This document shows, piece by piece, positions 14,563 through 61,190 of a DNA stretch of 64,000 bases; positions within the stretch are counted from its first letter, which is position 1; the number at the start of each line of letters is the position of its first letter. Below the pieces are notes generated by a model. It was not told the origin of the DNA, searched no databases, and saw only the letters and a list, made by a program, of their open reading frames with translations. This DNA comes from Alphaproteobacteria bacterium. Lineage in GTDB: Bacteria > Pseudomonadota > Alphaproteobacteria > Rs-D84. The stretch is taken from the NCBI GenBank assembly GCA_009783145.1, contig WRHR01000001.1, positions 492-64,491 of the forward strand, written 5' to 3'. The position numbers and the translations under genes are program-made.

Positions 14563-14683
14563 CATAAGTCGCTAGTCGAAAGTCGTTAGTCGCTAGTAAT
14601 ACTGCGCAACTCATAATAGTTGTCCTTTATAATGGACAATGCTATCAGTTGCTCATGCTGCTAGCGACTAGCGACGATCGCGC
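14563..14683. repeat. Core-palindrome element (TTGTCCTTTATAATGGACAA) flanked by inverted GCTAGTCG/CGACTAGC tandem arms
   Basis: Seen directly. The core is shared with the elements at 35205, 35768 and 61095. Confidence 0.7.
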
Positions 14684-14937
14684 ACAGTCTTGCAAGAGAT
14701 TTCATTGCAGTTTTCGTGATAATGGCTGTTGTATTTGCCGTTAACCCAGTTCACGCAATGAACCTTGCCGTTGCCCAGTTCCTGGCAGTGATGAGTTCTG
14801 GCCGCTCTACTGGTTTCTTCAGTTTGGACCGCACTGCCGGTTGCTTCTTGAGTTCTGGCCGCTCTGCTGACAACTTCTTCAGCAAAAGCCCCGCCCGAAA
14901 TCATAGCCGCAATGGCAACGATAAGTATTTTTTTCAT
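14668..14937 (-). CDS. Small secreted paralogue of the Cys/His-motif protein (ARTHHCQELGNGKVHCVNWVNGKYNSHYHENCNEISC)
   Basis: Signal peptide MKKILIVAIAAMISGGAFA. The conserved HHCQ-x-HCVNWV-GKYNSHYHENCN-I-C block matches 14055..14549. The last codons are encoded by the arm of the adjacent repeat. Confidence 0.5.
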   Translation of the reverse strand: MKKILIVAIAAMISGGAFAEEVVSRAARTQEATGSAVQTEETSRAARTHHCQELGNGKVHCVNWVNGKYNSHYHENCNEISCKTVRDRR

Positions 14938-15140
14938 CTGTTTTCCCCTTTGTTTAGAAGCCTGTTGCAACGCAACGATGTATCCTCACGATGCGCATTA
15001 CAATTTTTTGCTAATAACGCAAAAAATCTAATGCTTTTACGCTCGGATTCATAGTCAGCTCCTTTGGTTCACCTGAGATTATAGACAAAAAGTTTGAGGT
15101 GTCAAGCTTTTTGTTCTATAATCTCATGATTCCGATTGGA

Positions 15141-17144
15141 TTAGAACCCAAAGGTTATACCGGCTCTCCAGCTAACGTTGGCCTTGTCGCCTGTGGCGTA
15201 TGACGCGCCGACATTGACCAAGGTTCCGTTGTTGATGTAGTGGAACGCGCCCAGCGCAACGCCGAAGGCGTCACGATAGCCGCCCGTACCGATGGAGATC
15301 TGAGTATCGCCGCTGGAGCGAGCATTCGGCACCAACGCCGACATCGCCGCCAAGCCTGCGAATCCGGAACGAACTTCCTTGCTCAGGTCATCGACGCGGT
15401 TGTCCAGACGATCGATTTCAGCCAGAGTATATTCATACACATAGTTGATGGAGTTCGTCAGGTTCAAAGCGTAGTCTTTCGCGACCATGCCGGACTGGAT
15501 GTCCGCGCGCAGTTGGCGCACATCGCCGGTTTCCAGAACGGTTGCGACATTGTACGCGCCGTCGGTGGTCGGATCCATTACGTTTTCAGCACCGGTCGCC
15601 AAGTAAGACAAGGTCTTGATGGCTTCGTCTTCCGCACCGACCGCGCCCGAGTTGAACACCAGCGAACCAGTGTCTTCGTCGACGATCACAGAGTTCTGAC
15701 CGATGTGGATTTTGCTGGAGCCCGAATCCTTGCCGCCATCGCGACGGATTATGTCATCGATTTTTTCTTCGGTGGCAAGCAAGGCATCCGTCAGGTTGTC
15801 TATGCCGTCAAGGTGAGAGCGATAGTCGCTGCCATCCGCCGCATCCTGAAGTTTGGACACGTCGCCGATAACACTGTCAAGCGCCAGTATGCCTTCGGTC
15901 AGGTTGGTTGCGTCTTGAACGCCCACGTTGTTAGCAGCGGAGAAGTCCAGGTCGCCTTCGGCAGCCATCGCGCGGTTCTTTTCTTTAAGAACTTCCGCGT
16001 CGGTGTAGGTATTCGCCGCAGTCAAGGTGGCCGCGCCAACGCCGTCAGCATAGGTGTTCGCAGCCGTCAGTGTGGCAGCGTCGCCAGCGTCGGCATAGGT
16101 ATACAGCAAAGCCGCGGATGCCGCAACAGCAGCGTCAGCATAAGTGCTGGAATACGTTATGGCTTCAGCTTTCTTTTGGTCGGCATAGGTATACAGCAAC
16201 AGAGCCGAGTCCGCAACCGCAGCATCAGCATAGGTGTTGGCCGCTGTCAGAGTGCTTGCGCCTACTCCGTCAGCATAGGTGTACAATGCAAGCGTTGTGT
16301 CGGTAAGAGCCGTATCCAAAGCATTCAAGGCGCCCGCGACGCTCGTTTGACCATCAATGGCTCCGCCAGCTTGCAGCACGTCTTTGAAATCCTGGGTTGT
16401 GGAATCAAAGCCCAACTGTTCGCCCATGTAAGCTTCTGCTTTATCCCATGCGGCCGTGCCAAGCGCCATAACTTCGCTCTTGGTATAGTAGTCATCGAAC
16501 GCGGCATCCAAAGCGTTGAGCGCTCCGGCTACAGTTGTTTGACCGTCAATGACGCCACCGGCACTCAGCACATCCTTGAAGTCCTGAGTCGTGGAGTCAA
16601 AGCCCATTTGCGAACCCATATATGCTTCCGCTTTGTCCCAGGCAGCTTCGCCTTCTGCGCGCAGCGTGGATGCAAGAGTGGCCAAGTCAGTCGTGCTGGC
16701 TTTGGTGTCCATCGCGGTGTCCAAAGCATTGATAGCTTCGGCCACATTTTGCGCACCGTCAATGGTTCCGCCAGTGTTCAACACATCTTTGAAGTCTTGA
16801 GTTGTTGAATCATAGCCCATCTGCATGCTCAGTTCGGCTTCCGCAGCGTTCCAAGCGGCCAGACCGGCTGCCATTAACGTTGACTCTAACGAAGCCCCAA
16901 AGGCATCAACTTCAGCCTTGGTGTAAGCATCAGTAATGCCATAACCAGCTAAGGTTGTCGCGGCGTCAGCTTTGCCCGCTAACTGCGCGGTCGTAGCAAG
17001 ATCCGATAATTGTACACCACCGAGGTTGGGCATAGCAGATGCAGAACCATCGTCAACCATTATATCGCCCGCAGCCGCGAATGCGCCGGAATTAAATCCG
17101 ATGCCGACCGCAGCCACAAGTGCGATTAGACTTATTTTTTTCAT
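15141..17144 (-). CDS. Trimeric autotransporter adhesin (YadA-like)
   Basis: Signal peptide, stalk-like repeats (TLTAANTYADAAV..LLYTYAD), and a C-terminal YadA-anchor-like segment ...LSKEVRSGFAGLAAMSAL...GASYATGDKANVSWRAGITFGF. Confidence 0.75.
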   Translation of the reverse strand: MKKISLIALVAAVGIGFNSGAFAAAGDIMVDDGSASAMPNLGGVQLSDLATTAQLAGKADAATTLAGYGITDAYTKAEVDAFGASLESTLMAAGLAAWNAAEAELSMQMGYDSTTQDFKDVLNTGGTIDGAQNVAEAINALDTAMDTKASTTDLATLASTLRAEGEAAWDKAEAYMGSQMGFDSTTQDFKDVLSAGGVIDGQTTVAGALNALDAAFDDYYTKSEVMALGTAAWDKAEAYMGEQLGFDSTTQDFKDVLQAGGAIDGQTSVAGALNALDTALTDTTLALYTYADGVGASTLTAANTYADAAVADSALLLYTYADQKKAEAITYSSTYADAAVAASAALLYTYADAGDAATLTAANTYADGVGAATLTAANTYTDAEVLKEKNRAMAAEGDLDFSAANNVGVQDATNLTEGILALDSVIGDVSKLQDAADGSDYRSHLDGIDNLTDALLATEEKIDDIIRRDGGKDSGSSKIHIGQNSVIVDEDTGSLVFNSGAVGAEDEAIKTLSYLATGAENVMDPTTDGAYNVATVLETGDVRQLRADIQSGMVAKDYALNLTNSINYVYEYTLAEIDRLDNRVDDLSKEVRSGFAGLAAMSALVPNARSSGDTQISIGTGGYRDAFGVALGAFHYINNGTLVNVGASYATGDKANVSWRAGITFGF

Positions 17145-17375
17145 AAGGTTTCTCCTTGTTTTTGTTTAGTAATTCCCTTCCTATTAGGAATATGGCCCCA
17201 GTATTCTATTCCTGATGGCAATAGTCAAGAAAAAAATCCCAATGCATTGCAAATTTATGATGCTTGACATATCAAAATAATGGTTAAACGTGAAAAGCGC
17301 GTAATTTCAGCGTCTTGGCGTAAAATACCGTTGTCCTGTTGGGAATTTTATCCTATATTATGTATTAATCATCAA

Positions 17376-17620
17376 CTGGATTGCTTCGCCCGTTGGGCTC
17401 GCAATGACAATAAGGAGTGTGTTCAAGGCACACAGCCTAAAACAAACGCCGACTTGTCATTGCGAGGAGCGCGTAAGCGCGACGCGGCAATCCAGTCAAT
17501 AAAAAGGAATCATACACTATTCACTGGATTGCTTCGTCCGTCTTCGCTTCGCTACGCCGCGACTCGCAATGACAATAAGGAGTGGATTGCGGAGCACAGC
17601 GAACAATGACAAGGGAGAGA
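17376..17620. repeat. Cluster of family-A MITE-like elements (TIR CTGGATTGCTTCGC...GCTCGCAATGACAA / TTGTCATTGCGAG...GCAATCCAG). One full copy and further half copies.
   Basis: Seen directly. Full copies also occur at 17941-18095, 29338-29455, 59300-59415 and 60186-60292. Confidence 0.75.
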
Positions 17621-17626
17621 ATAAAT

Positions 17627-17935
17627 ATGAAAGAACATCATTACTATGTCTATATTCTTTTCAACAAACGCAACGGGACTCTTTACACCGGCGTGACGCG
17701 CGACATATTTCGCAGAACTGAAGAGCACAAAAGCAAAAAGCCTTTTGGATTCGCAGAAAAACACGGGGCGGACAAATTAGGCTATATTGAAAGCTATCAA
17801 TATGTTAACGATGCCATCTTCCGTGAAAAACAAATCAAGGCCGGATCGCGAAAAAATAAGCTGAAACTAATCGAATCGATGAATCCCGAATGGAAAGACC
17901 TGTGGTACGAGCTTGGGAATTTTGTTTGGAGTTAG
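17627..17935 (+). CDS. Small GIY-YIG nuclease-family protein (URI-domain type)
   Basis: HYYVYILFNKRNGTLYTGVTRDIFRRTEEH... carries the GIY-YIG signature. It is a paralogue of 36548..36928. Confidence 0.7.
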   Translation: MKEHHYYVYILFNKRNGTLYTGVTRDIFRRTEEHKSKKPFGFAEKHGADKLGYIESYQYVNDAIFREKQIKAGSRKNKLKLIESMNPEWKDLWYELGNFVWS

Positions 17936-17940
17936 CAATA

Positions 17941-18095
17941 GTATTGTCATCGCGAGGCGCGAAGCAGCCGTGGCGACTGGATTGCCGCGCCCTGCGGGCT
18001 CGCAATGACAATTCGGTGTTTGTTTTAGGCTGTGTGCCCTTTTTGCTCTTCATTGTCATTGCGAGGAGCGCAAGCGACGAAGCAATCCAGTGAAT
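17941..18095. repeat. Family-A MITE-like element
   Basis: ...GACTGGATTGCCGCG...GCTCGCAATGACAATTCGGTGTTTGTTTTAGGCTGTGTGCCC...TTGTCATTGCGAGGAGCG...GCAATCCAGTG. Confidence 0.75.
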
Positions 18096-18123: not shown

Positions 18124-19005
18124 TTGTTATTTACTTCCTATACTGCGCGCGTGGAACAAAATACCGTGATTTCTTTCGCAAACGTTGCGGCGCGGTACGA
18201 AGGCGGGCGAGAGGTCCTGTCCGACGTATCCTTTAATATCAGCAACGGCGCTTTCTATTTCCTGTCCGGCGCGTCGGGGGCGGGCAAGACCACCCTTTTG
18301 CGCCTTATATATATGCTGCACCCCGCATCACGCGGCCAGATAAAGTTATTCGGAAAGACCACAACCGGAATGTCGCGAGACGACATCACCGCGCTTCGCC
18401 GCAAGATGGCCATCGTGTTCCAAGAGTACTCGCTGGTGTCGCACCTGTCGGTCTTCGACAATATCGCCCTGCCCTTGCGCGTTCGCGGCGCAGATGAAAA
18501 GTATGTGAAGAAACTTGTCGCGAAAACTTTGGAATGGGTGGGACTTGCGCAGTACGCAAACCAGCGCCCGCTGAATCTTTCCGGCGGACAGCAGCAGCGC
18601 GTTTCGGTCGCGCGCGCTATCATTACTCAGCCCGAAATCTTACTCGCGGACGAGCCGACCGGAAACCTGGACGACGATTCGGCCGCGCGACTGATGGAAT
18701 TATTCTTGCAGATGAACAAGAACTTCGGCACTGCCATCATTCTTGCAACGCACAGCCAGCGCCTGATGGACACTTACAAGTTCCCAAAGATTTATGTCGA
18801 AAACCAGCATGTGCGATTCGAGACGCGAGACGCGAAACGCGAAACGCGTGTCGATGATACAGAACCAACTGAAAAAAAATCTAAATCTCAAAATTCTGGC
18901 GCGTCTCGCGTCTCGCGTCTCGCGTCTCGCGATAAAAGTTATTTCGAAGAGCTATCGGGAAAACTTGAATTGGAATTTTCAAAACTGGCGGGAGAAGAAA
19001 AATGA
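18124..19005 (+). CDS. ftsE: Cell-division ABC ATPase FtsE, with a C-terminal extension created by an in-frame repeat-element insertion. A GTG at 18166 is a possible alternative start.
   Basis: Walker A GASGAGKTT, LSGGQQQRV signature and Walker B ILLADEPTGNLD. After ...YVENQHV the frame reads through the heptamer-arm element (ETRDAKRETR...SRVSRLASR). The stop overlaps the ftsX ATG (ATGA). Confidence 0.85.
   Translation: MLFTSYTARVEQNTVISFANVAARYEGGREVLSDVSFNISNGAFYFLSGASGAGKTTLLRLIYMLHPASRGQIKLFGKTTTGMSRDDITALRRKMAIVFQEYSLVSHLSVFDNIALPLRVRGADEKYVKKLVAKTLEWVGLAQYANQRPLNLSGGQQQRVSVARAIITQPEILLADEPTGNLDDDSAARLMELFLQMNKNFGTAIILATHSQRLMDTYKFPKIYVENQHVRFETRDAKRETRVDDTEPTEKKSKSQNSGASRVSRLASRDKSYFEELSGKLELEFSKLAGEEK
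18815..18940. repeat. Heptamer-arm palindromic element (GAGACGC/GAAACGC x4 ... GCGTCTC x4) inside the ftsE reading frame
   Basis: Seen directly. Translated as ETRDAKRETR...ASRVSRLASR. Confidence 0.8.
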
Positions 19006-19838
19006 GGAACAAACGGCCCCTGGTTTTTTCCTTCGTGCGCGAGCAAGCCATATTCTTGACGGCTTTGATAGCATTGCTGACTTTCCTTGCGACGCTTGCG
19101 TTGGGCGTTACCGTCGGAATCGGCGCCGGAGTCGCGCAATGGAACGCGCGGTGGGATACTTTCGCGACGGTTCAGGTCTTGCCGGGCGGAGACTTCGACG
19201 CCGCGCAAAAACTGTCCAGGAACGCAAAGCATGCAAACGTCGTTCCGGACGAGGAAGTTGCGAAAATGCTGCGCCCTTGGCTGGGCAGCAGCGATGCGTT
19301 ATCCGCTTATTTGCCGAAGATGATAGAAGTCGAGTTCGCGAACTCATCCGACTTGCGCAGCTTCGGCGATGCTGCGAAAAACCTGCAGGGCGCGCGCTTC
19401 ATCACGCATGCCGCCGGAGCAAGAAATATTACTCGCGCCGGATGGCAGATTATGGGAATCTCGGTCTTGGTCATGATTATGGTTCTGGGCGCCATAGGCC
19501 TCTGCATTTCATACATCACGCGCAATATAACTCTGATTCACAAGCGCGAGTTGGAAATATTAACTCAAATCGGCGCAAGCGATTCGTTCGTGGCAACCCA
19601 GATGCAAATTATCATCACTAAAATCAGCGCGATGGCGGCCGGCATCGGCCTGATTGTCGCAGTACCGATGATTTTCTTGATAACATCCATGGCTCAAGGG
19701 ACCCGAATCGGGTTGATGGCGCAAATGCATGTGCCAGCGATGGGATGGACCCTGATCGTATTGCTGCCCGTCCTAATAATCGCGCTGACGGCATGGTTGG
19801 CGCGCCGCACAACGATGAAGATTTTGGGCGATAAATAA
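19002..19838 (+). CDS. ftsX: Cell-division permease-like protein FtsX
   Basis: MRNKRPLVFSFVREQAIFLTALIAL..., four TM segments and a periplasmic loop. Translationally coupled to ftsE. Confidence 0.85.
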   Translation: MRNKRPLVFSFVREQAIFLTALIALLTFLATLALGVTVGIGAGVAQWNARWDTFATVQVLPGGDFDAAQKLSRNAKHANVVPDEEVAKMLRPWLGSSDALSAYLPKMIEVEFANSSDLRSFGDAAKNLQGARFITHAAGARNITRAGWQIMGISVLVMIMVLGAIGLCISYITRNITLIHKRELEILTQIGASDSFVATQMQIIITKISAMAAGIGLIVAVPMIFLITSMAQGTRIGLMAQMHVPAMGWTLIVLLPVLIIALTAWLARRTTMKILGDK

Positions 19839-19845
19839 TTTACGA

Positions 19846-19905
19846 TTTACAAATTACGATTTGTTGGGAGTAAAATCGTAAATCGTAAATCGTAAATCGT
19901 AAATC
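19846..19905. repeat. Hairpin built from the tandem heptamer TACGATT / AATCGTA (x4)
   Basis: Seen directly in the intergenic region between ftsX and the DUF218 gene. Confidence 0.7.
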
Positions 19906-21259: not shown

Positions 21260-22633
21260 CTAGGGGAGTTTCGGCGACCAGGTCGGCTCCAGCCCGTTGA
21301 CGCCTTCGGGCAGCTTTATATCATATGTGTTGTGCCCCATTATATCCACGCTGCGGATATGGCTGACGCGCTCGGTATCGCTGTATTTTTCCGTTTCGTA
21401 ATAGACGACGCGGCGACTGCCCGGCGCCCAGCTTGGGGCCTCCATATACCATCCTCCGGCAAGGATTTTCTCGTTCTTTCCCTTCGGCGACATCACTCCG
21501 ATGAAAAAGGTATCGTCCGCTATCTTCGTGAACGCGATATAGTTCCCGTCGGGGCTCCACGCGGGCGTGGCATAGCGCCCGTTGCCGAATGTTATGCGCT
21601 GCTCGGACAAGTCGCCCAGGTCCATCACATGAATCTGCTGGCTGCCCGACCGGTTCGAATTGAACGCCAGCTTTTTCCCGTCCGGGGAATACGAAGGCGA
21701 AGTATTGATATTATCGCCGAACGTCAATTGGCGCAGCTTGCTGTTTTCCAAGTCGTATTCGTAAAGGTTCGTGGCGCCGTTCTTGACAAGGGATATCGCG
21801 ACCTTGCCGCCATCCGGCGAAAAGCGCGGCGCGAATGTCATCCCGCCGAACTGCCCCAGCTTGCGCTGCGCGCCGGTATTCATATCCAGCGTCCAGACCA
21901 TCGGATTATCGTCGCGATAGGATAGGAATACTATGGTCTGCATGTTCGGCGAAAAGTGCGGCGACATAACCATGGTTTTCGCATCCGAGATATAGCGGAA
22001 TCCGAATCCGTCGCTGTCCATTATCGCAAGGCGCTTGGTTCGGTTGCCCATCTCCCCGGTCTCGGTCGTCATGGCTATCTGAGTATCGAAATACCCGACT
22101 TCGCCGGTCAATCTTTCATAAATGCTGTCCGCCATGATATGCGCGAGACGCCGGGCGGATTTCTTAGGCGCGACCAGGACTTGGGCTTCGATCTGTTCTT
22201 TGCCCTGGATATCCCAGACATAGAACTGCAGGCTGTATTTTCCGTCGGCGGTTTCCGTAAGCCGGCTTTGCACCATGACCTGGGTTTTTATCGCTTCCCA
22301 GTCTCGCCAAACCGGCATTTCGTCCATTTTTACGAGTTTAGGATGCGCGGCCTGCTTTACGATATGGAACAAGCCGGTGGATTTCAGGTCGTTTTCCACA
22401 ACTTCGCGCAGGGTCGCGGCCAGTTTCGCGTCTTTGGCCTCGAACTTTTGAATCGCGATCGGTATGGGCGAGACGTTGCCGGCGATAATATCGACCTTTA
22501 ATTCGGCGCGTGCCGCGCCGATAAAGAATAAAGAATAAAGAATAAAGAATCCGAGTTGGCAATTTATTGCCTTTACGAGGATACGCGCAGACGCGAAGCG
22601 TCGAGCGAATAAATTCTTTGCTTTTTTTAACAT
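21260..22633 (-). CDS. tolB: Tol-Pal system beta-propeller protein TolB. The start is trimmed to MLKKAKNLF.
   Basis: N-terminal TolB domain plus repeated WSPDG beta-propeller blades (SPDGGKVA, SPDGKKLAF, AWSPDGNYIAF). The signal peptide contains the tandem heptamer AAAGAAT x4. Confidence 0.9.
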   Translation of the reverse strand: MLKKAKNLFARRFASARILVKAINCQLGFFILYSLFFIGAARAELKVDIIAGNVSPIPIAIQKFEAKDAKLAATLREVVENDLKSTGLFHIVKQAAHPKLVKMDEMPVWRDWEAIKTQVMVQSRLTETADGKYSLQFYVWDIQGKEQIEAQVLVAPKKSARRLAHIMADSIYERLTGEVGYFDTQIAMTTETGEMGNRTKRLAIMDSDGFGFRYISDAKTMVMSPHFSPNMQTIVFLSYRDDNPMVWTLDMNTGAQRKLGQFGGMTFAPRFSPDGGKVAISLVKNGATNLYEYDLENSKLRQLTFGDNINTSPSYSPDGKKLAFNSNRSGSQQIHVMDLGDLSEQRITFGNGRYATPAWSPDGNYIAFTKIADDTFFIGVMSPKGKNEKILAGGWYMEAPSWAPGSRRVVYYETEKYSDTERVSHIRSVDIMGHNTYDIKLPEGVNGLEPTWSPKLP

Positions 22634-22765: not shown

Positions 22766-25700
22766 GTGAAGAGAGAAGGCCGGAAAATCAGCTTGGTCGC
22801 GTTAATTATCGCCGCGTTCGTCGCGCCGGCAATGGGCGCCGATATAAACATAGTTACCTCCAAGCAATACGTCGACGCCAGGTTCAACCCTGCCGACGCC
22901 GCGACCAAGATTGCGGTCGTGACGCTTGACGCCAATAATCGCCCCATCGTAAAGAATGATAAGAGCATTTCAGACATACTCGGCGGCATAACTACAACGA
23001 CCACCGGTGCCGGTAATGCGGTTACAAGCATTTCCGACGACGGCGCGGGCCATATCACTGCGACCAAGGGCTCGACTTTCTTGACCGGCGAAACCGACCC
23101 GTCCATCGATACCACTGTCATGGGCACTGCGGCGACTGCCGCGGGAACGACTGGCACCGCGGGCAAGGTTTATACGGTTCAGAAAAATGCGGCCGGGAAA
23201 GCAGTCGTCAGCGTGCCTTGGATGGATAACAATACGACTTACACCGGCACCGCGCCAATTGATGTAACCGGTACTGTCGTGTCTCATAATACTTCCGGCG
23301 TAACAGCCGCAGCATATGGGCCCAGCGCTCCCGCGACTTTGACATCTGGCGGAACGTTTACCGTTCCCAGCGTGACTGTAGACGCAAGAGGACATGTCAC
23401 TGCTGCTGCTGCGCAAACCATGACTATGCCAAGCATACCTGCGGCTGCAAATAATGCCGCGATTAAAATAGCATATGCGACGACCGGCATAACGGCTGCA
23501 GGGAACTTTGCGACCGTCAATCAAGCGGCCGATAGTACTTTGACCTTGCATACTGTGGCAAGCACCGGAAGCTATAACGATCTGGGCAACAAGCCGTCGA
23601 TACCAGCGGCTCAGGTTAATAGCGATTGGAATGCAGGCAGTGGCGTTGCGCAGATACTGAACAAGCCGACAATACCGACTATAACTATGAACAACGCTGG
23701 GACTACGACGCCGAGCTTTTATGCTCCGACAGCAGGAGGCACTTCGGGTAATGTTCTGAAATCCACCGGGGCGACCAGCGCTCCGACTTGGGGGACATTG
23801 TCTTACTCTGATATTACTGGCACCCTGCCGCAGGTGCAATCTGACTGGGCTCAGGCGACAACGGGTGCGGCTGATTATATTAAGAACAAACCGACGATAC
23901 CAAATACTGCTGGCACTGGCATCAACATAACCGGCGCGACCATAACTAATACCGCGCCGAATTTGCAAACGAAGAATATTGTCGGAGCGGCGACCGGCGC
24001 GACTGCGAATGCGGCCTCTACGAACGGCAATACGTATTTGAATGCTGTTGAGAACGGCGCTGTGGTCAGCACTCACAAAATCGCTGGAGGCGGCGCGACT
24101 ACTGTTACTTCCGACGCTTCCGGAAACATAACCATCAGCAGCACGGATACGCCTCCTACGACATATACCGGCACCGCGCCTATTAATGTGACCGGTACTG
24201 TTGTATCTCATAATACTTCCGGCGTTACGGCGGCAACTTATGGTCCCGGCGCGAATGCGACATTGGCTTCGGGCGGAACATTTACTGTTCCGGAAGTTAC
24301 GCTCAATGCGACAGGACATGCGACCGGCGCCGCGACAAGAACATTTACCTTGCCGACTATATTAACCCATCCGGCCGGCGCGAACGGCACTTTCGGACCG
24401 GCTGCGAACGCGACACTGACTTATGGCGGCACATTCACAGTTCCGCAAGTAACCGTCGATGCGAACGGGCATACGACAACAGGCGCGACAAGAACATTTA
24501 CCATGCCGGCCGCGCCGACCGCTTATACTCACCCCAACGACGGCGGGGCTGGAACGTACGGTCCGGGAGCAGATGCAACATTAGTAAGCGGCGGCACGTT
24601 TACAGTTCCACAAGTAACCGTCAACGCTGCCGGGCACACGACTTCGGGCGCGACCAGAACGTTTACTATGCCCTCGATTCCCGCGGCTGCAAACAATGCA
24701 GCGATTAATATTGCATATGGCGCAACCGCAACAGCTCCGGGACAATTTGCGACTGTTGATCAATCAGCTGCTACAACTCTTACTTTGCATACTGTGGCAA
24801 GAACAGGAAGTTATGATGACCTGACTAACAGGCCGACTATTACGGATACTAAGATCAAGGCGTTCAACGGCAACGTTACTGCAGGCACGGCGGCGGCATA
24901 TACTCTTGCGACCACATATCCTGCGTTCACGGCGGCGGATATGGCTGACGGAACGGTAGTGTTTGCGACTCCGAACCAAACGAACTCCGCCGGCGCGACG
25001 TTATCCGTTGGCGGGCAGACAGCGCGTCCGATTTGGAATTCCGCGACCGGCGCGACTGTGGCGGCAAGCGCTTTGGTTGCGAACATGGCTTACTCGTTCA
25101 CGTATGACGCCACGAATAACAGATGGCATGCAAAGCAGCTGGATACAAACACGGTTTATACTCATCCGACCGGTGGTGCGAACGCTACGCTTGGTCCGGG
25201 GGCGAATGCGACGTTGACATTCGGCGGCACATTTACCGTTCCGCAAGTAACTGTCGATGCGAGCGGGCACACGACTTCTGGCGCGACAAGAACATTCACT
25301 ATGCCTGCGACGCCGACGGCTACGGGCACTGCGGGCGGCGATTTGACCGGAACTTATCCTAACCCGACTTTGACCACGACTGGCGCGGCTGCCGGAACTT
25401 ACGGCATTACGGCGGATGCGTCCGGATCCGGAGCAAGCTTTAAAGTTCCGAAATTCACTGTCGATACCAAGGGTCGTTTGAGCATGGCGGGAGAGAATAC
25501 CGTCACTATGCCGACGACAACGACTTATGCCGGCACCGCGCCAATTACCGTAAGCGGAAGCAGCATAACTCATGACGACTCCGGCGTAACGGCCGCAGCA
25601 TACGGGCCCAGCGCGCCCGCGACCTTGACATCCGGCGGAACGTTTACGATTCCGTCAGTTACCGTTAATGCAAAGGGCCACGTCACGGCGGCAGCAACTC

Positions 25701-29337: not shown

Positions 29338-29455
29338 ACTGGATTGCCGCGTCGCCCTTCGGGCTCCTCGCAATGACAATTCGGTGTTTGTTTCAGGCTC
29401 TGCACCTTGTTCTACTCTTCCTTGTCATTGCGAGCGCAGCGAAGCAATCCAGTTT
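29338..29455. repeat. Family-A MITE-like element
   Basis: CTGGATTGCCGCG...CTCGCAATGACAATTCGGTGTTTGTTTCAGGC...TTGTCATTGCGAGCGCAGCGAAGCAATCCAG. Confidence 0.75.
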
Positions 29456-30219: not shown

Positions 30220-30254
30220 GCAAACGCTTTGCGTTTGCTAGAGTATTCGCTCGC

Positions 30255-30345
30255 TTCGCTCGCAGAGTAAGAGAGTAGAAGAGTTGTAGATATTTTTTTT
30301 ACTCTATTACTCTCTTACTCTGCGAGCGAAGCGAGCGTTACTCTT
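30255..30345. repeat. Hairpin element with inverted arms CGCTCGCTTCGCTCGCAGAGTAAGAGAGTAG / CTATTACTCTCTTACTCTGCGAGCGAAGCGAGCG, sitting between the convergent genes plsC and asmA
   Basis: Seen directly. It probably acts as a bidirectional terminator. Confidence 0.65.
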
Positions 30346-32465: not shown

Positions 32466-33464
32466 TTATTCTGTCTTAAACTCCAAAAACTTCGCGACGT
32501 TCGCCATAAAGTTCGGCATCTGCGCGCGAATTGTCACTATCTTTTTCGTTACCGGATGCCTCAGCGACAGCTTGTGCGCGAACAGGAACAATTTGTTGGA
32601 ATCCAGCATGGAATCCAAGATTGTGTTATCTGTGCTCTGTGCTCTGTGCTCTGTGCTCTGGCGATACAAAGTATCGCCGACTATCGGGGCGCCCAGCGCG
32701 AATGCCGAATGCAGGCGCAACTGGTGCGTGCGTCCGGTCTGCGGCGCAAACCGCACCCAGGTCAGGACTCCGGGCAGTCGTCCCAAGACCTCGTACTTCG
32801 TAATCGCGCGCTGCGGGCGAGTGCCACTCAAGCGCTGAAATTCATCCGCCTCATCCGACGACAGGACTTTTCCTTTCGCCATAAAGGTATCCAAAACGCC
32901 GCGGCCGACCGGAATGCTTCCGCGCAGCAGCGCCAGGTATTCTTTTGCCGCGGACTTGTCCCTGAACTGGGCCGCCAGGTGCTGAGCGGCGCGCTGATTC
33001 TTGGCGAAGACTATCACTCCGCTTGTCTCGCGATCCAGGCGGTGCACGGGAAGAATCGTGTCATAAGGGAACAATGCCGCCGCCATTTTATCAAGCGATT
33101 TTTTTATCCCGGTTCCGCCCTGCACCGCCAGACCCGCTGGCTTGTCGAACGCGACGAAGTCCGGATCGTCATGGATTATCAGCTTGCGTAATTTTTCCAG
33201 GTCGGCCAGAGAAAATTTAATTCCGGATTCCTGGCTTTTCGCTTGAGGGGACTGCTGCAGCGCGGCAAGAAAAGGCGGAATGCGCAAGTCGTCGCCCGAA
33301 TGCAGAATTTCATCGCCATGGCACCTCGCGGAGTTCACGCGCATCTGGCCTGATCGGCACAGCTTGTGAAATTCTCCGTCAGAAACTCGCGGATAGTGCC
33401 TCTTGACCCATCTTTTCAGACGGATTCCGTCTTCAGTGGAAGAGATTACAGTTTGTGTGCGCAT
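32466..33464 (-). CDS. RluA-family 23S rRNA pseudouridine synthase (RluC/RluD-like) with an S4 domain
   Basis: HRLDRETSGVIVFAKN catalytic motif and an S4-like N-terminus. The tandem heptamer GTGCTCT x4 in the 3' region is translated as HRAQSTEHRAQST. Confidence 0.85.
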   Translation of the reverse strand: MRTQTVISSTEDGIRLKRWVKRHYPRVSDGEFHKLCRSGQMRVNSARCHGDEILHSGDDLRIPPFLAALQQSPQAKSQESGIKFSLADLEKLRKLIIHDDPDFVAFDKPAGLAVQGGTGIKKSLDKMAAALFPYDTILPVHRLDRETSGVIVFAKNQRAAQHLAAQFRDKSAAKEYLALLRGSIPVGRGVLDTFMAKGKVLSSDEADEFQRLSGTRPQRAITKYEVLGRLPGVLTWVRFAPQTGRTHQLRLHSAFALGAPIVGDTLYRQSTEHRAQSTDNTILDSMLDSNKLFLFAHKLSLRHPVTKKIVTIRAQMPNFMANVAKFLEFKTE

Positions 33465-35840: not shown

Positions 35841-35856
35841 GACGAAGGAGCAACAA

Positions 35857-49533: not shown

Positions 49534-51102
49534 TTAATTCAACGGTGCGCCCCAGTGCTGTTGTATTCTGCGTTCCGCATCAAGCGGAGATATCAATACC
49601 TGCGGCGTCAGAATCACGACCAGCACGTCGCGCGTGCTGCTGGAATCGCGGCTTCCCGACAACGCTATGAAGTCCGGATCGCCGATGCCATAGCGCGTAT
49701 CGTTATTAGCATGCCGTTCGAATCCCGACAGAACCAGAATCTGGCCGGATTCCATGACCACTTCCTGCATAAAGCTGCGCTCTTCCACTTCGGGCAATTG
49801 CAGCGTTACGGCGCCTATCGTCTCGTTCCTAAGCGCTATCAATTCCCGTATGCTCATTTTGAACAGCAGCAAGACCTTGCCGTTATCCAATACGTTCGGC
49901 AGCAGCTGCATCGAGAATCCGGTTTCCAAATCTTCCTGGTCCACTGTGGAGCTTTCCACAGTCGTAAAGTTGCGCGATTCAAACCGTTTGATGTATCCGC
50001 GCTTTCTGGTGTTGGATACCGGCGCGATGCGGTTGTTGCGCGTGGTGACTCCGACATTGGTCACAAGCGAAACTTTGCCTTGCGTCGACAAGGCCGTAAT
50101 CAGCGCCTTGCTGCCTTGTATGGTGTCCAGGCTGCCGTTGGCCGTTCCTGCTGCATTGGCCCCCAGAACCGCGATATTCAACGTATTCGCATTGGATACG
50201 GCTCCTAAGGTATTTGACGGCTCCGCCGCAATGGTAAGGCCGGATGCCGCATTAATCGCCGCGGCCAGATTCAGGCCGAACGCCGATCCGTTATTTATCG
50301 ATACCTGCAAGACTTTCACGTCGATCGTTATCAACTGCGCCAAGCGCCTGTTCTGTCTTGTTATATAATCGCCGACGCGGTTCAACACGCTTGGGGGCGC
50401 CGTCACCGTGATCGTGCCAAGTGCGCGCGACACCGTGAACTTGGCGTCGGCAGCTCCGTCAACGATTGATTCCAAAGTCTTTTCAACTTCTTCCCACTCG
50501 CGCAGGTTCGATTCCAAGGATACCTGGTTTCCGTCATCCGTGCGTATCGCCGACTGATAGCTTACGTCGGTCCCCAAGGCGAACAAGGCAAAAGTCCTGG
50601 TCTCGGTCTCGTAAAACACTATGTTGGTTTTGTCATAGTACCACAGCAGGTCCAAGTCCGTCGCGACCTGGGACAGCAGTCCGGACAAGCGCCCCGTATA
50701 GGCGACGCCCATCGTGCGTTTTAATTTTTCCTGATTTATCTGGCTGTCTATCTTGATCGGCAAGCCCGTGATGGAGTATATATTGTTGGCCAATATCTGC
50801 AGAGTCACCGGCTCGTTCAACATAATCGTGATTCCGGCGTCGTTCTCGAACTTGCGCGGCAGATTGTTTCTGTGCTCCAAGACTGTCGACCTGTTGCCCA
50901 GCCAGACGCCTTCGGAAGCGGACACGGTATCGTTGGAAATTTTCGCTTTCGGATTTTTAGACATCTCGAAAGCGTCGAACGCATTGATGAAATCCTGATC
51001 GATTGTCGACGCGACCTGAGCGCTTTCCTTTTTGGCGCAGCCGCCAAGCCAGAGCACAGAGCATAGAGCACAGAGCACAGATATTTTTATAATTTTTTTC
51101 AT
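49534..51102 (-). CDS. Secretin-family outer-membrane lipoprotein (type IV pilus / T2SS secretin)
   Basis: Lipobox LGGC. C-terminal secretin domain: ...TLQLPEVEERSFMQEVVMESGQILVLSGFERHANNDTRYGIGDPDFIALSGSRDSSSTRDVLVVILTPQVL. The signal peptide is built from the tandem heptamer AGAGCAC. Confidence 0.7.
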   Translation of the reverse strand: MKKIIKISVLCALCSVLWLGGCAKKESAQVASTIDQDFINAFDAFEMSKNPKAKISNDTVSASEGVWLGNRSTVLEHRNNLPRKFENDAGITIMLNEPVTLQILANNIYSITGLPIKIDSQINQEKLKRTMGVAYTGRLSGLLSQVATDLDLLWYYDKTNIVFYETETRTFALFALGTDVSYQSAIRTDDGNQVSLESNLREWEEVEKTLESIVDGAADAKFTVSRALGTITVTAPPSVLNRVGDYITRQNRRLAQLITIDVKVLQVSINNGSAFGLNLAAAINAASGLTIAAEPSNTLGAVSNANTLNIAVLGANAAGTANGSLDTIQGSKALITALSTQGKVSLVTNVGVTTRNNRIAPVSNTRKRGYIKRFESRNFTTVESSTVDQEDLETGFSMQLLPNVLDNGKVLLLFKMSIRELIALRNETIGAVTLQLPEVEERSFMQEVVMESGQILVLSGFERHANNDTRYGIGDPDFIALSGSRDSSSTRDVLVVILTPQVLISPLDAERRIQQHWGAPLN

Positions 51103-51143
51103 ATATCTCTCCCTACTAGCGACTAACGACTAGCTACTAGTGA

Positions 51144-52355
51144 CTATTCTTCGTTCGTCGTCACGACCAGAACGCGGTTGCCTTTAAAGAACTTTGCGTA
51201 TGGCACCGGATCCGCGCGGCTGAAATTTCGCACCAGCGCGGATGCCACGTCCATAAAGCGTCCTTTGAACACCGCCGAAGCCTGGATTGGATATTCGCGC
51301 GCGGTGCTCCATACCAGATCCCAGCCTTCCTTGTCGCTCCATTCCTGCAGGATGCTGCGCAAGGTCTGCCCGCTGGCGACGACCCACGAACGCACCTGGT
51401 CGTTTGCCGCGCTCCGCGCCATTGCCCCGCCCATGGATTCCTCGACCTCTATCTCGCCATAGTTCGATATGCCCGGCGCGCTTCTTTCTTCGTCCGCGAA
51501 GCCGTAAAATTCTCCGCTGTCGTCTTCGAACTCGTCATACGAACCGTCCGAGATATAGTCTCCGAACTCATCGAACGCACCGCCCATGCCGATCATGCTG
51601 TCGTCAAACGATCTGGCGCCGCCCAGCCTTATCTCATTTCCGGATTCATCGAACAGCTTGCCTCCGCCCGCCATGACATCATTCAGCGTTCTTCTGGCGA
51701 CTTTCGCATTCGTTTCATTGCCGAATTCATCGAACGAGCCGACCATGATATCATCAGGTATCGGGCCAGCGCCCGTCCATACTTCATCGCCGAATTCATC
51801 GAACACTCTGCCGTTGCTTGCCAAGACATCGGCCAGCGATATTCCGCCGGTCTCGTTGCCGAATTCATCGAACGCCCCGCTCATACCCGTGATATTATCC
51901 ATCGAACCTGCGGCGCGCTTATTCCCGACTCTTTTCACTTTTCCGCTTTTTGTGATTTTGCCTCTATCGGACCGAGACATGGCCAGAACGGCGCTGCCGT
52001 CGTCTTCCAGCATTTCCGCGTGCATCAGCGGCATTTCCGCGCGACCTTCGAACATATTGAACCCGGCGGGCGCTTGAAACGGATGAGTCATATCCGCGCC
52101 GCCTGAAAAGACATTGCGCATGCCGCCGCCCAGATTGAAGTTATTTTCCACGACAAGGTCCGCGCCAATTTTTGAAACTATGCGGACGTTTTCGGGATCT
52201 TCGGCCTGAACGACGGGATAGATTGAATCATAGAATTGAATGTCGGCCTCGGACCCCGGTGCGGGCCAAACATCGTACTGCGCCGTGGAATCTGCCGCGA
52301 AGACATACCCGCAGGCTGTCGCGAATAGCGCGAAAATCAAGAACTTTCGGAACAT
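51144..52355 (-). CDS. Secreted protein with FDEFGNE repeats and a C-terminal TcpQ-like domain. It is a type IVb pilus/secretin-associated protein.
   Basis: The C-terminus VRSWVVASGQTLRSILQEWSDKEGWDLVWSTAREYPIQASAVFKGRFMDVASALVRNF...GNRVLVVTT matches the TcpQ C-domain pattern. The gene is adjacent to the secretin. Confidence 0.55.
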   Translation of the reverse strand: MFRKFLIFALFATACGYVFAADSTAQYDVWPAPGSEADIQFYDSIYPVVQAEDPENVRIVSKIGADLVVENNFNLGGGMRNVFSGGADMTHPFQAPAGFNMFEGRAEMPLMHAEMLEDDGSAVLAMSRSDRGKITKSGKVKRVGNKRAAGSMDNITGMSGAFDEFGNETGGISLADVLASNGRVFDEFGDEVWTGAGPIPDDIMVGSFDEFGNETNAKVARRTLNDVMAGGGKLFDESGNEIRLGGARSFDDSMIGMGGAFDEFGDYISDGSYDEFEDDSGEFYGFADEERSAPGISNYGEIEVEESMGGAMARSAANDQVRSWVVASGQTLRSILQEWSDKEGWDLVWSTAREYPIQASAVFKGRFMDVASALVRNFSRADPVPYAKFFKGNRVLVVTTNEE

Positions 52356-52424
52356 TATCCTTATCCTTACCTTTTATATAGGTCTATTATAGCAATTTGT
52401 GCGAATCGCCGTCAAGGGTTATTA

Positions 52425-52535
52425 CGTGACGCGAAACGCGAAATGCGAAACGCGCGCATAATGCAACACTATATATCGTTGCACAATTTACGCATCTCGC
52501 ATTTCGCGTCACGCGTTTCGTTTTTGCATTTGCAA
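52425..52535. repeat. Heptamer-arm palindromic element (GACGCGAAACGCGAAATGCGAAACGCG ... CGCATCTCGCATTTCGCGTCACGCGTTTCG) with an inner palindrome TGCAACACTATATATCGTTGCA
   Basis: Seen directly. Confidence 0.75.
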
Positions 52536-56783: not shown

Positions 56784-56827
56784 TGATAAAGCAATAAATA
56801 AAGGATTCGTCATGCCAACAAAACAAA

Positions 56828-56935
56828 AACGTGACGCGAAACGCGAAACGCGAAACGCGAAAAATAATAAAGAAATAAAAAAGACCGTAACACATTCCGA
56901 ACCACGCGTCTCGCATCTCGCGTCTCGCGTCTCGA
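56828..56935. repeat. Heptamer-arm palindromic element (GAAACGC x4 ... GCGTCTC x3-4) at the 5' end of a membrane-protein gene
   Basis: Seen directly. Confidence 0.75.
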
Positions 56936-56943
56936 ACAATAAA

Positions 56944-57825
56944 ATGATAACCTGGCTATTTTGGGCCCCGCTGAAATTCACGGTGCTGTTCGCGGTATTG
57001 TTCGGAATAACTATGGTTATAACCAACCTCATATTCCGCACGCCGTCCCTGGCGGCGATCATCTGGGCGCCCAGGATTATACTTGCGGCCGTCGCGGCGA
57101 TTTCCGCGTTTTCCGTTTACAAGCTGATTCGCTGGACGCATGACGACCCGCTGGATCAGAAAAGCTTCGTCATGCTGAACATAGCCAAAAGCCTGCTGTC
57201 CTTGGTGCTGATAGCGGCGGCCGGCGCGGTAGCCTTGCAGACGCAGGCCGCCGCCACGTTCGAGCAACTGATGGCCCTGGGCCTTAGCACTCTTCTTCTG
57301 CTGATTTATCTGGGCGGCATCGGTCTGTTGGAAATCAAGCTGCTGTTCGTCCGCGCGCGGGCCCAGGGCGCGGCCAAATGGAAGCTGTGGCTTTCCATAC
57401 CTTTTGGGATAGGCCTGTTTTGGTACTCGGGATTTTTGGTTGCCGACAGCGCGAAGAAGAATCAGGTCGTAAGCGCGAAGTCGAAATTCTGGAACGGGCT
57501 GTCGGGATGGATAACGGCAAGCCGGAGAAATACACTAATCGCGTTCGTGGTGATACTTGCGGTCGGAATGGCGCTTATGAGTTCCCAACTTACGAATATG
57601 ATATTGTTCGGCGTTATATCCGCAATTATCATTTTATGCCTGAGGTATTGGAAAAGACTGCGCGACAATCTTGGCGGGTTGTACGCCTCAATCGCTATGA
57701 TTTTAAATATAGTCGTTATCCTGGGCCTGCTGGGCAAAAGCGCGTATGATTATCAAAAGCAACCGACAATGATACAAGAACAGATTGAAATAACGGAAGT
57801 AATGCCGGCTTTGCCGGCAGAGTAG
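56944..57825 (+). CDS. Polytopic membrane protein of unknown function. A possible upstream start at 56812 reads through the repeat element.
   Basis: 6-8 hydrophobic helices. The alternative N-terminal extension MPTKQKRDAKRETRNAK...PRVSHLASRVS is encoded by the repeat. Confidence 0.45.
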   Translation: MITWLFWAPLKFTVLFAVLFGITMVITNLIFRTPSLAAIIWAPRIILAAVAAISAFSVYKLIRWTHDDPLDQKSFVMLNIAKSLLSLVLIAAAGAVALQTQAAATFEQLMALGLSTLLLLIYLGGIGLLEIKLLFVRARAQGAAKWKLWLSIPFGIGLFWYSGFLVADSAKKNQVVSAKSKFWNGLSGWITASRRNTLIAFVVILAVGMALMSSQLTNMILFGVISAIIILCLRYWKRLRDNLGGLYASIAMILNIVVILGLLGKSAYDYQKQPTMIQEQIEITEVMPALPAE

Positions 57826-57948
57826 CGTGCGCTTCGCGCACAGAGTAGAAGATTAAGAGAGTATCAGATTATTCTCCTACTCTTTTACTCTCCTACTCTG
57901 ATTTTTCGGCTTTGCCGAAAAATCTTTACTCTAGCTCGCGGAGAGAGC

Positions 57949-59299: not shown

Positions 59300-59415
59300 T
59301 ACTGGATTGCTTCGCTCTGCTCGCAATGACAATTCGGTGTTTGTTTTAGACTGCGTGCCCCGGGCACCCTCTCCCTTGTCATTGCGAGGAGCGGTAGCGA
59401 CGAAGCAATCCAGTC
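59300..59415. repeat. Family-A MITE-like element
   Basis: CTGGATTGCTTCGCTCTGCTCGCAATGACAATTCGGTGTTTGTTTTAGAC...TTGTCATTGCGAGGAGCGGTAGCGACGAAGCAATCCAG. Confidence 0.75.
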
Positions 59416-60144: not shown

Positions 60145-60185
60145 TAATAGAGTGTTAATGCAAGGACGGCGGCCCAGCGGCCGCT

Positions 60186-60292
60186 GTTTTTTTGACTGGA
60201 TTGCTTCGCTTCGCTCGCAATGACAATTTGTGTTTGTTTGTTCTCCCTTGTCATTGCGAGTCACGAAGTGGCGAAGCAATCCAGTCAAATAA
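60186..60292. repeat. Family-A MITE-like element
   Basis: CTGGATTGCTTCGCTTCGCTCGCAATGACAATTTGTGTTTGTTTG...TTGTCATTGCGAGTCACGAAGTGGCGAAGCAATCCAG. Confidence 0.75.
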
Positions 60293-60422
60293 TCTTGCGA
60301 ACGCAACCATTTTGACAAACGATTCTTTAACTACAAGCTAACTATTAACTTGCAATACTTTTTCGTCACTGATAGAATTCCTATCGGTTATCCAAAGATA
60401 ACCGCAACCAAAAGGAATTCTT

Positions 60423-61025
60423 ATGAAAAAACTTCTCTTAACATCCGCAATAATTATGGCGGCGGGCGCCGCGCAAGCAATGACGCCTTATGCTTCCATA
60501 AAAATGGGCTATATGGACAATTCTGTGCAAGCACACATGCCGGGCGTGCCTGTTGACGGATTTGTGGGCTATGCCGGCTTTGACGGGTTTGCCGGTTCGG
60601 TCGCCGGCGGATTGGGATTTGATGTAGAATCATTCCTGACACTGCGCGGCGAATTGGAATATTCCTATGCCAGAACCAGCCTTTCGTTTGGTGGCGATAA
60701 AGTGAACCTGAACGCGAATGCCGTCATGGTCAATGGCTATGCCGACATTGGAGATGCGGCATGGGTTGTAAAGCCGTATGTCGGATTCGGCCTGGGCTAT
60801 AGCTTTGGCAGCATATCTGAACCTGGCCACCCCTCCGAGAGTGGCGACGGCGGATTTGCATATTCAGGCATGATTGGCGCGGCATGGCACATCAACTCCA
60901 ACTTTGCGCTGGATGTCAGTGCGAAACGCTGGGTCAATAATGGCGGTATACCCAATGGCGGTGGTTCGCTTGACACCAAATATATCGGCACGTCATATAT
61001 GCTTGGCGCAAGGTATTCGTTTTAA
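60423..61025 (+). CDS. Small outer-membrane beta-barrel protein, tandem paralogue
   Basis: MKKLLLTSAIIMAAGAAQA...LGARYSF. Terminator at 61026-61056. Confidence 0.65.
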   Translation: MKKLLLTSAIIMAAGAAQAMTPYASIKMGYMDNSVQAHMPGVPVDGFVGYAGFDGFAGSVAGGLGFDVESFLTLRGELEYSYARTSLSFGGDKVNLNANAVMVNGYADIGDAAWVVKPYVGFGLGYSFGSISEPGHPSESGDGGFAYSGMIGAAWHINSNFALDVSAKRWVNNGGIPNGGGSLDTKYIGTSYMLGARYSF

Positions 61026-61057
61026 AAAACGCGGGGCAAAGCCCGCGTTTTTAATTA

Positions 61058-61190
61058 GCAATTATCAATTAGCGATTAGCGGGATGGATGCAACAATAAA
61101 TATTGTCCATTATAATGGACAACATTATTCTTTAATCTGCCAAACTTTAATTGATAATTGCTAATCGCTAATTGCTAATTGCTAATTAAA
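61058..61190. repeat. Composite element: arms TTAGCAATTATCAATTAGCGATTAGC / GCTAATCGCTAATTGCTAATTGCTAA around the core AATAAATATTGTCCATTATAATGGACAACATTATTC
   Basis: Seen directly between the convergent OMP and dnaJ genes. Confidence 0.8.

Follow-up and report, generated by a model that had tools for sequence, protein, structure and literature searches.

Heptanucleotide foldback hairpins, some with a REP-like apical module, in an alphaproteobacterial genome

Hairpins with heptanucleotide arms

We analysed a 64,000-nt stretch of the genome assembly of a termite-gut alphaproteobacterium (contig WRHR01000001.1), hereafter called the window, to which hairpin and array counts refer unless stated otherwise. 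Within and between genes such as ftsE, uvrC, efp and dnaJ it contains 12 hairpins of 60-145 nt, all arms of which are runs of approximately four 7-nt units, about 30 nt each, at a spacing of 4-150 nt. Four of the hairpins carry a conserved palindromic core at their tip and eight do not. Two repeat types that can occur apart from each other make up the finding: heptamer foldback hairpins and a clade-specific, REP-like module of ~55 nt. There is no full-length consensus across the 12 hairpins; they have only the architecture in common, in some cases together with arms or core.

The four core-bearing hairpins measure 113-145 nt each and differ in their arms. The first (14568-14685) is intergenic, with AGTCGNN arms at ~14566-14598 and 14660-14683, the core module at the apex and an RNA folding energy of -54.6 kcal/mol. 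The second (35156-35286), formed by (GAAACGC)4 and (GCGTCTC)4, lies inside the uvrC open reading frame (ORF; 34180-35706), which reads through it in frame in the variable linker between MMEEFLxR and LIIVDGG. The third (35726-35838) has arms of GTGCAGG heptamers and is located in the uvrC-efp spacer between the conserved -10-like motif CTTTATAAT and the efp ribosome-binding site, a position that probably places it in the efp 5′ untranslated region (UTR). ATTAGCA/ATTATCA/ATTAGCG arms form the fourth (61048-61192), which separates convergent outer membrane protein (OMP) and dnaJ genes and is directly preceded by a GC-rich hairpin with a T run resembling an intrinsic terminator.

Among the coreless hairpins, the one at 18816-18933, composed of (GAGACGC/GAAACGC)4 and (GCGTCTC)4, is situated in the C-terminal linker of ftsE, whose ORF reads through it in frame, and its centre is native linker. 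GAAACGC-type arms also make up the hairpins at 34026-34149, in a divergent spacer directly upstream of the uvrC promoter region, at 52424-52521, again in a divergent spacer and with GTGACGC and GAAATGC variant units, and at 56830-56934, where ORF 56812-57825 reads through the hairpin in frame within its N-terminal part. ATTTACG heptamers occupy the space between the ftsX stop codon and the start of a DUF218 gene (19838-19904), and GAGTAAG-type arms on a CGCTCGCTTCGCTCGC base form 45 predicted pairs between convergent acyltransferase and asmA genes (30240-30344). GTAGGAA heptamers are found between a pseudouridine synthase gene and a pilin-like ORF (33479-33549), and GAGTAGA/GAGAGTA-type arms in the spacer ahead of an AI-2E transporter gene (57841-57900).

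A tandem-repeat scan over periods 4 to 12 detected 13 arrays at period 7, none at periods 4-6 and 8-12, and none in shuffled sequences. Compared with the 12 inverted pairs, only four arrays of the window are solo. The array (ATAAAGA)4 at 22521-22550 is inside the tolB ORF and has no inverted partner within 400 nt; (TCTGTGC)4.5 at 32629-32660 is inside the pseudouridine synthase ORF. On its minus strand, (CAGAGCA)4.5 at 51050-51081 encodes a hydrophobic stretch near the N-terminus of a secretin, which in our own reading may represent a lipoprotein-type signal peptide. An ACTAGCG/ACTAACG-type array, read from the sequence at approximately 51115-51146, lies in the spacer upstream of the secretin gene.

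Complementarity of the arms was 84% (35726/35807) and 97% (61048/61160) at two core-bearing loci and 73-96% in the coreless hairpins that the same search listed, confirming that the arms are truly inverted. RNA folding energies of the 12 hairpins ranged from -23 to -76 kcal/mol with 24-47 stem pairs, and comparison with shuffled sequences gave z values of -8.5 (35722-35842, folded as RNA) and -5.5 (35152-35290, folded as DNA). The four core-bearing loci read as described in an initial annotation of this DNA, and all eight coreless hairpins that it listed exist; for a single arm noted there at 56828 the right partner was found at 56903-56934. Its view of the arms as short tandem units held as well, although the supposed 8-mer and 12-mer units turned out to be heptamers: the label GCTAGTCG resolves to four AGTCGNN units, and TTAGCAATTAGC to ATTAGCA/ATTATCA/ATTAGCG, that is ATTAGCN. 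Two independent assemblies, L101 (ENA ERZ27257305 k141_5950) and L222 (JGI 3300002505), were 100% identical to the window across the hairpins, which rules out an assembly artefact. No strain-level length variation indicative of phase variation was found; the 90% protein clusters contain only more distant relatives.

The core palindrome and its module

A search with TGTCCWTTATAAWGGACA, allowing up to two mismatches, returned matches at 14621, 35214, 35774 and 61104, all of them exact. In shuffled sequences the mean was 0.01 matches, and four were not reached in any of 100 shuffles. The combination of a conserved core with interchangeable simple-sequence inverted arms, as first proposed, is thus real, modular and far from chance. 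The size of the core had to be revised from 18 bp, since alignment of the four copies delimited a 20-bp palindrome, (Y)TGTCCWTTATAAWGGACAA, within an asymmetric, oriented module of ~55 nt. The module consensus consists of an A side, GTGCAACAATAAATA, the central palindrome and a B side, yATTATTCATATaTTCTgA. At 14620-14639 the palindrome reads TTGTCCTTTATAATGGACAA, with the A side GCGCAACTCATAATAG on its left; at 61103-61122 it reads TTGTCCATTATAATGGACAA, with the A side GATGCAACAATAAATA on the left and the B side CATTATTCTT on the right. The modules around CTGTCCATTATAATGGACAA (35213-35232) and TTGTCCTTTATAAAGGACAA (35773-35792) are inverted relative to these two. In all four window copies the heptamer arrays start 3-5 nt beyond the module.

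A scan with TTGTCCNTTATAANGGACAA, restricted to one genome per species, returned 93 loci (numbered with the prefix L), 40 of which contain 62 non-redundant core copies from ~14 termite-gut metagenome-assembled genomes (MAGs) named Alphaproteobacteria or Rickettsiales. The sample codes Lab288, Nt197, Cu122 and Emb289 refer to gut samples of higher termites (PMC7024585). Core density is about one per 5-16 kb. Almost all classifiable copies (43/45) are located between ORFs, in 19 tandem, 16 convergent and 8 divergent spacers, with some enrichment between convergent genes; the other two are in doubtful small ORFs. The 3′ flanks are T-rich, and a T run of at least four within 14 nt accompanies 20 of the 62 copies. 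Apart from G/C followed by T-rich positions, the composition of the flanks revealed nothing fixed, in particular no GTAG-like 5′ tetranucleotide. Extra complementary flanks of at least 3 bp and variable sequence were present at 14 of the 62 copies versus ~1 expected.

Heptamer arms of other units, namely GAGAATT, GGTAATA, AGTAGTA, TAACAGC and GTAATTG, flank the core in other MAGs, and in array-rich genomes most cores have such arms (4/4 in the window; L010, L020, L049 and L082). Cores also occur without arrays: Pcl387_bin15 and Lab288P3bin109/136 have many core copies and no heptamer arrays. In Hm464_bin176 the core is part of mosaics with other palindromic modules (ccccgcccc/ggggcgggg). Nested G+C-rich palindromes resembling these modules (GTTCCCCTCCTGTGGAGGGGTGC...GCACCCCTCCACAGGAGGGGAAC) are present in the window at 13870-14008 and 7557-7649.

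Core and arms are thus separable: eight of the 12 hairpins are coreless, orthologous hairpins in relatives are coreless, and some genomes contain cores without arrays. This argues against the core as a nucleator. It suggests that the hairpin came first and that the module entered or survived at its apex.

Related or identical palindromes were encountered elsewhere. A variant, TGTCCAATATATTGGACA, is present in three copies within 18 kb of L100 (8961, 15800 and 16970), two of which are flanked by A and T runs in the manner of a bidirectional terminator. The identical 20-mer TTGTCCTTTATAAAGGACAA occurs in many Patescibacteria MAGs (L012, L019, L028, L034, L045, L077, L083, L084, L093, L026, L043, L060 and L072), downstream of a CCA-adding-enzyme-like gene in both loci checked (L093, L043), and in many of these loci adjoins extra TGTCCTTTA half-sites and the DnaA-box-like TGTGGATAA. 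It has the appearance of a conserved site with a regulatory or origin-like role and no relation to the hairpins. In Flavobacteriia (L011, L015, L036, L040, L056, L066, L079 and L090) the 20-mer stands at a conserved spot where it can be read as the opening codons of a gene (MTKTAQSVWENCLSFIKDN...), which we take to be dnaA; this is most likely a coding coincidence. As the contexts differ, both sets of matches were rejected as copies of the same element. A phage origin of the core was likewise rejected, with only five matches in 2.9 million viral contigs.

Filled and empty sites in relatives

Several hairpin sites could be compared with their counterparts in related genomes. Owing to the hairpin in its linker, the window UvrC comprises 508 aa versus 463-475 aa in relatives, and NCBI annotates the 508-aa protein as intact. 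Four other genomes carry heptamer hairpins in the same linker and with the same boundaries, built from GCAGTTA (L094), GCAGATA/GCAAAGA (L095), GGAGACA (L096) and AGAGTAA (L100) units, all without the core. Many other genomes, L098 and L099 among them, have a short linker without a hairpin. A rough UvrC tree placed four hairpin-bearing genomes in a clade with two empty members, and L100 apart. The linker hairpins would then stem from a single old gain, after which some were lost and the arms turned over completely, or they were gained repeatedly. The L095 units GCAGATA/GCAAAGA encode ADSK, and the empty L099 allele at the same place is GCAGATTCAAAAAAT (ADSKN). This match between arm residues and native linker suggests that the L095 arm grew from local sequence.

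Coreless hairpins with other arms were present at the same place of the uvrC-efp spacer in L094 and L095. Both the uvrC-efp hairpin and the one upstream of uvrC are missing from close relatives, and the spacer corresponding to hairpin 34026-34149 is empty in L098, L099, L096 and L100.

The ftsE gene of L228, with ~80% nucleotide identity to that of the window, has no arms, and the centre of the window hairpin aligns with the native linker of L228 and of L221. Relative to L228, 45 nt are cleanly inserted in frame as the right arm, and the left arm consists of 41 bases replacing ~47 native ones. In L221 a left arm, (GCAGTCG)4, occupies the same site, and its right counterpart is placed 147 nt downstream, at the extreme C-terminal end, such that the loop contains the coding sequence of the conserved C-terminal helix. 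The final unit of the L221 ftsE array merges with the native sequence, a sign of local origin. Arms flanking native ftsE DNA and the displaced right arm of L221 show that arms were added around existing DNA and that the hairpin was not delivered as one piece. This fits an array that came first and an inverted copy that followed; insertion of a whole hairpin does not fit. The modular mobile hairpin envisaged by the initial annotation is consequently not supported in the form in which it was stated.

The hairpin between ftsX and the DUF218 gene is missing in L228, where both genes abut. Altogether, presence or absence differs among close relatives at five sites. Comparison of filled with empty sites (uvrC, uvrC-efp, the region upstream of uvrC, and ftsX-DUF218) showed no target-site duplications, although short ones could be hidden, given relatives that are 70-80% identical.

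The restriction to period 7 also holds in relatives. Across 458 kb of the clade, arrays had a median length of 30 nt and a maximum of 48 nt, and 41 of 78 comprised four units. About 55 different units were counted among ~85 arrays, most of them locus-specific, which fits local birth better than a fixed template. Mirroring of arm variants between the two arms was examined in a register test and discarded as too noisy. Outside the clade, a (GAAACGC)3 query hit more than 119 environmental contigs with GC contents of 39-71%, in which 19 of 124 arrays had an inverted partner. In these contigs (L102-L220), (GAAACGC)n and GAAACNN mixtures are widespread in soil, marine and freshwater metagenomes; the GAAACNN arrays are often directly upstream of ATG start codons and some exceed 250 nt. 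One contig, L158, resembles eukaryotic telomere-type CCCTAAA repeats.

Origin of the hairpins and comparison with known systems

As an explanation we tentatively favour, with a confidence somewhat short of even, foldback elements of the DNA level that would arise from heptanucleotide arrays by slippage and fold-back template switching and would carry a clade-specific REP-like palindrome at some apices. Replication slippage would create a heptanucleotide simple-sequence array, sometimes from local sequence; the existence of solo arrays agrees with this first step. The nascent strand would then fold back and copy the array by intrastrand template switching, and the reverse complement would be inserted a short distance away. 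Slippage within arms, together with hairpin-templated correction between them, could preserve complementarity during turnover of the sequence, and some arm types would also spread between loci by a further step. In array-rich genomes the ~55-nt module around the palindrome TTGTCCWTTATAAWGGACAA may enter, or survive in, the loops of pre-existing hairpins. We infer that the hairpins are probably nearly neutral and persist in spacers, UTRs and, when the frame is kept, disordered protein linkers.

Several observations weigh against this origin by slippage and fold-back copying. Arms are somehow copied between loci. In all five GAAACGC-type hairpins the arm pair has sharp 30-nt boundaries and the same left/right difference (GAAACGC versus GAGACGC). 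The copies at 52425 and 56828 share the non-periodic GTGACGC as their first unit. In the right arm, unit three is the variant GAGATGC at 34020 and 56828; at 52425 both arms carry GAAATGC at this place. Such shared boundaries and variants at five loci indicate copying between loci, which slippage and fold-back copying leave unexplained, and ORF scans of the window revealed no enzyme able to perform it. AATTAGC/AATTATC arms occur in the window, L100 and L006, and GAGTA-type arms in the window and L100, genomes whose UvrC proteins are ~63% identical. Fold-back copying is expected to yield perfect complements, whereas an A.C mismatch recurs regularly, unit by unit, on the plus strand of all five GAAACGC-type hairpins. 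Free slippage would not predict an array size confined to about four units. No template-switch junction was caught, and two assemblies of the same strain showed no length variation. Moreover, the close relatives L098 and L099 have no hairpins in 21 kb each, so that some lineage-specific factor may be needed.

Copying between loci would be accommodated by non-autonomous foldback elements similar to MITEs (miniature inverted-repeat transposable elements), an alternative we regard as unlikely on balance yet worth serious consideration. The arrays would serve as terminal inverted repeats for a transposase encoded elsewhere, arms or arm pairs would move, and arm types would be subfamilies. Terminal inverted repeats are indeed present, with arms 73-97% complementary. 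The five loci with sharply bounded arms, common internal variants and the same asymmetry support this explanation, as do the arm types common to several genomes, the variable presence at five sites in close relatives, the near-constant array length, and the uvrC linker, which holds five different arm types and possibly is an insertion hotspot. However, the ftsE arms around native sequence and the displaced right arm of L221 are incompatible with one transposed unit. Even with identical arms the centres are unrelated and of different lengths in the five GAAACGC-type copies, that of ftsE being native host sequence. Target-site duplications were not visible, a test limited by divergence, and the ~67 ORFs scanned in these 64 kb of the genome included no transposase, neither RAYT/Y1_Tnp nor any other. 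About 55 unit types would, in addition, imply very many subfamilies. A role of the hairpins as functional RNA, in the form of 5′-UTR or 3′-end stabilisers, RNase III sites or attenuators, would explain arm turnover as compensatory evolution under structural selection and the core as a conserved apical protein- or RNA-binding loop. In its favour are the uvrC-efp spacer hairpin, retained at one site in the window as well as in L094 and L095 while its arms differ entirely, the very strong folding (z = -8.5), and the enrichment of cores between convergent genes (16/43) with T-rich 3′ flanks. Yet the sense RNA was the weaker fold in eight of the 12 oriented hairpins and in six of seven coding hairpins, and a mismatch check of the oriented hairpins gave no sense-strand preference for G.U over A.C, which argues against selection on the sense RNA. 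Weaker sense folds, together with locations in coding regions and divergent promoter spacers, favour a DNA-level origin with little selected function. The hairpins are missing from the close relatives L098, L099 and L228 and hence dispensable, and no T run was seen after the window hairpins checked (e.g. 61048-61192), as judged by eye without a terminator scan. Rfam 15 at gathering scores had no match in the whole window and ARAGORN found neither tRNA nor tmRNA, ruling out a known RNA family or tRNA-derived element. Taken together, functional RNA hairpins appear doubtful to us. Replication orientation offered no further clue, as the cumulative GC skew does not turn anywhere in the window, although dnaA is located at 44-45 kb.

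The initial annotation had also considered the core as a protein-binding site that nucleates local repeat expansion; we weighed this idea with the core as such a site or as a hairpin seed and heptamers expanding on both of its sides. Arrays beginning 3-5 nt outside the module in 4/4 window copies, the heptamer arms of most cores in array-rich genomes and the excess of complementary core flanks (14/62 versus ~1) speak for it. The separability of core and arms described above, however, largely refutes nucleation as a general cause, and solo arrays and ftsE hairpins form around unrelated sequence; we consider it very improbable. Little credence, but some, may be given to a dedicated lineage-specific process that would read structure or the 7-nt register and install or exchange ~30-nt complementary arms around arbitrary DNA, including essential genes. 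If this were true, identical arm pairs, five uvrC arm types and hairpin-free close relatives would have one cause, and the process would represent a new kind of bacterial foldback mobile element, in which the transposing unit is the arm rather than the whole element.

Irrespective of their origin, the hairpins bear on a wider question. For decades, heptanucleotide repeats (STRR, TAACTGA, LSSR) have been known to be the most frequent type of long simple repeat in bacteria, and we know of no explanation for their origin, their spread or the 7-nt period. The clade provides a tractable natural experiment, with close genomes with and without arrays and orthologous sites in different states: empty, solo array, paired arrays, and paired arrays with core. 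Arrays inside conserved genes allow base-by-base ancestral reconstruction, and ftsE, where both arms can be added around native coding sequence, constrains any mechanism. The inserts lengthen conserved proteins, UvrC for instance from ~465 to 508 aa, and create stems of 30-45 bp in mRNAs and DNA, which is relevant to annotation, MAG assembly and phylogenetic markers.

The window contains further repeats and mobile features. A diversity-generating retroelement spans 37076-39822. Its reverse transcriptase (RT) gene (38806-39822) encodes the active-site motif YSDD and has 8ub7 as best solved relative (E = 3e-43); the template repeat occupies 38055-38174 (+), and the variable repeat (37113-37232) is situated close to the 3′ end of a minus-strand gene, 37076-37810. 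All ten differences between these 120-nt repeats are at adenines of the template repeat, and differences confined to adenines of one copy identify a diversity-generating retroelement. A link of the hairpins to this RT, suspected to be a G2L4-like repair RT capable of snap-back synthesis, was rejected because 8ub7 rather than the G2L4 structures 9D5X/9D4S is the best solved relative, the motif is YSDD and the nearby repeats mark a diversity-generating retroelement. The retroelement is part of a 4.2-kb island (36430-40640) between efp and trxB that also comprises a small GIY-YIG gene and a DUF386 gene and is missing from the syntenic L098 and L099. A second repeat family, GTCATTGCGAG, has 12 exact copies (17398-18065, 29367-29434, 59320-59388 and 60214-60260) versus 1.4 expected at one mismatch. 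They form six inverted pairs, often with CGAAGCAATCCAG, and three of these pairs bracket a small GIY-YIG gene (17582-17935), suggestive of a mobile cassette of GIY-YIG type. Two ORFs are very large: 14-3427 (-), encoding 1137 aa without a Pfam match, and 22766-29293 (+), encoding 2175 aa with internal repeats of ~320 bp that are 82-93% identical. Of a phage-type tyrosine integrase, ORF 8431-9468 (-) contains no more than the central and arm-binding domains, with scores far below family cut-offs, and may be a remnant.

Full-text literature searches returned no description of a family with the architecture reported here, in agreement with the initial annotation. Several known systems share parts of it. 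Heptanucleotide repeats were reportedly described by Mazel et al. in 1990 as the STRR sequences of cyanobacteria. Simple sequence repeats (SSRs) of this kind have in common with the hairpin arms the strict 7-nt period, few to several units and a scattered distribution, mainly in spacers and often directly upstream of start codons. According to PMC4679880 (citing Mrazek 2007), no other class of long SSR is as abundant in bacteria as the heptanucleotide repeats, which are proposed to arise by slippage. A case described in detail is that of the TAACTGA repeats of Beggiatoaceae and cyanobacteria (PMC4679880); the unit TAACTGC, used by L094, differs from them by one base. Nostoc spacers contain TTGTCAG-type arrays (PMC2408588). 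Known cases, in contrast, are direct arrays of one or few units per genome, as in the BOGUAY genome with 169 direct sets and one indirect set (PMC4679880). Here, ~55 units were found, an inverted copy accompanies three quarters of the arrays, array size stays near four units, and some are in frame in essential genes.

With REP, BIME and REPIN sequences the core shares a short imperfect palindrome that is conserved in a clade, mostly extragenic, enriched at gene 3′ ends and combined into mosaics with other palindromes. It differs in that the GTAG-type 5′ tetranucleotide is absent, no RAYT was found in the window, and the flanks are simple-sequence arrays instead of a second REP copy. Integron attC sites likewise keep a hairpin structure and leave most of the sequence free to vary. 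Their conserved boxes, however, are at the stem base and the centre is variable, which is the reverse of the present case, where stem bases are heptamer arrays of arbitrary sequence. Neither an integron integrase nor a cassette array was detected in the window, in which the sole tyrosine-recombinase-like ORF (8431-9468) is far from the hairpins.

Template switching at quasipalindromes has reportedly been studied by Ripley in 1982 and, in E. coli, by the Lovett laboratory. By this known mechanism an imperfect inverted repeat has one arm copied from the other, so that complementarity is created or perfected without selection. The documented cases concern a few altered bases and not the installation of 30-nt arms, and the mechanism leaves the 7-nt period unexplained. 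Drosophila FB is a eukaryotic Foldback transposon. Such transposons have inverted arms of short tandem subrepeats around variable or unrelated centres. They are kilobase-sized and have transposases and target-site duplications, neither of which was seen in our case, and the likeness is therefore architectural only. Tetris is a further example (PMC4079207).

In-frame palindromic inserts, present here in uvrC, ftsE and ORF 56812, are a feature in common with Rickettsia palindromic elements (RPEs). These alphaproteobacterial inserts of ~100-150 bp are palindromic and are tolerated within protein-coding genes, where they keep the frame and occupy linkers or the protein surface; copies of a family are alike throughout. 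The present hairpins, in contrast, have only the architecture in common, with some sharing arms or core, and were set apart from RPEs by description; RPEs are cited in PMC1779305 and PMC2229807. The hairpins are best filed as heptamer SSRs combined with REP/BIME-like and RPE-like behaviour. What appears to be new is the systematic pairing of arrays into hairpins, the high diversity of units, the in-frame sites in essential genes and the REP-like module at the apex of some copies.

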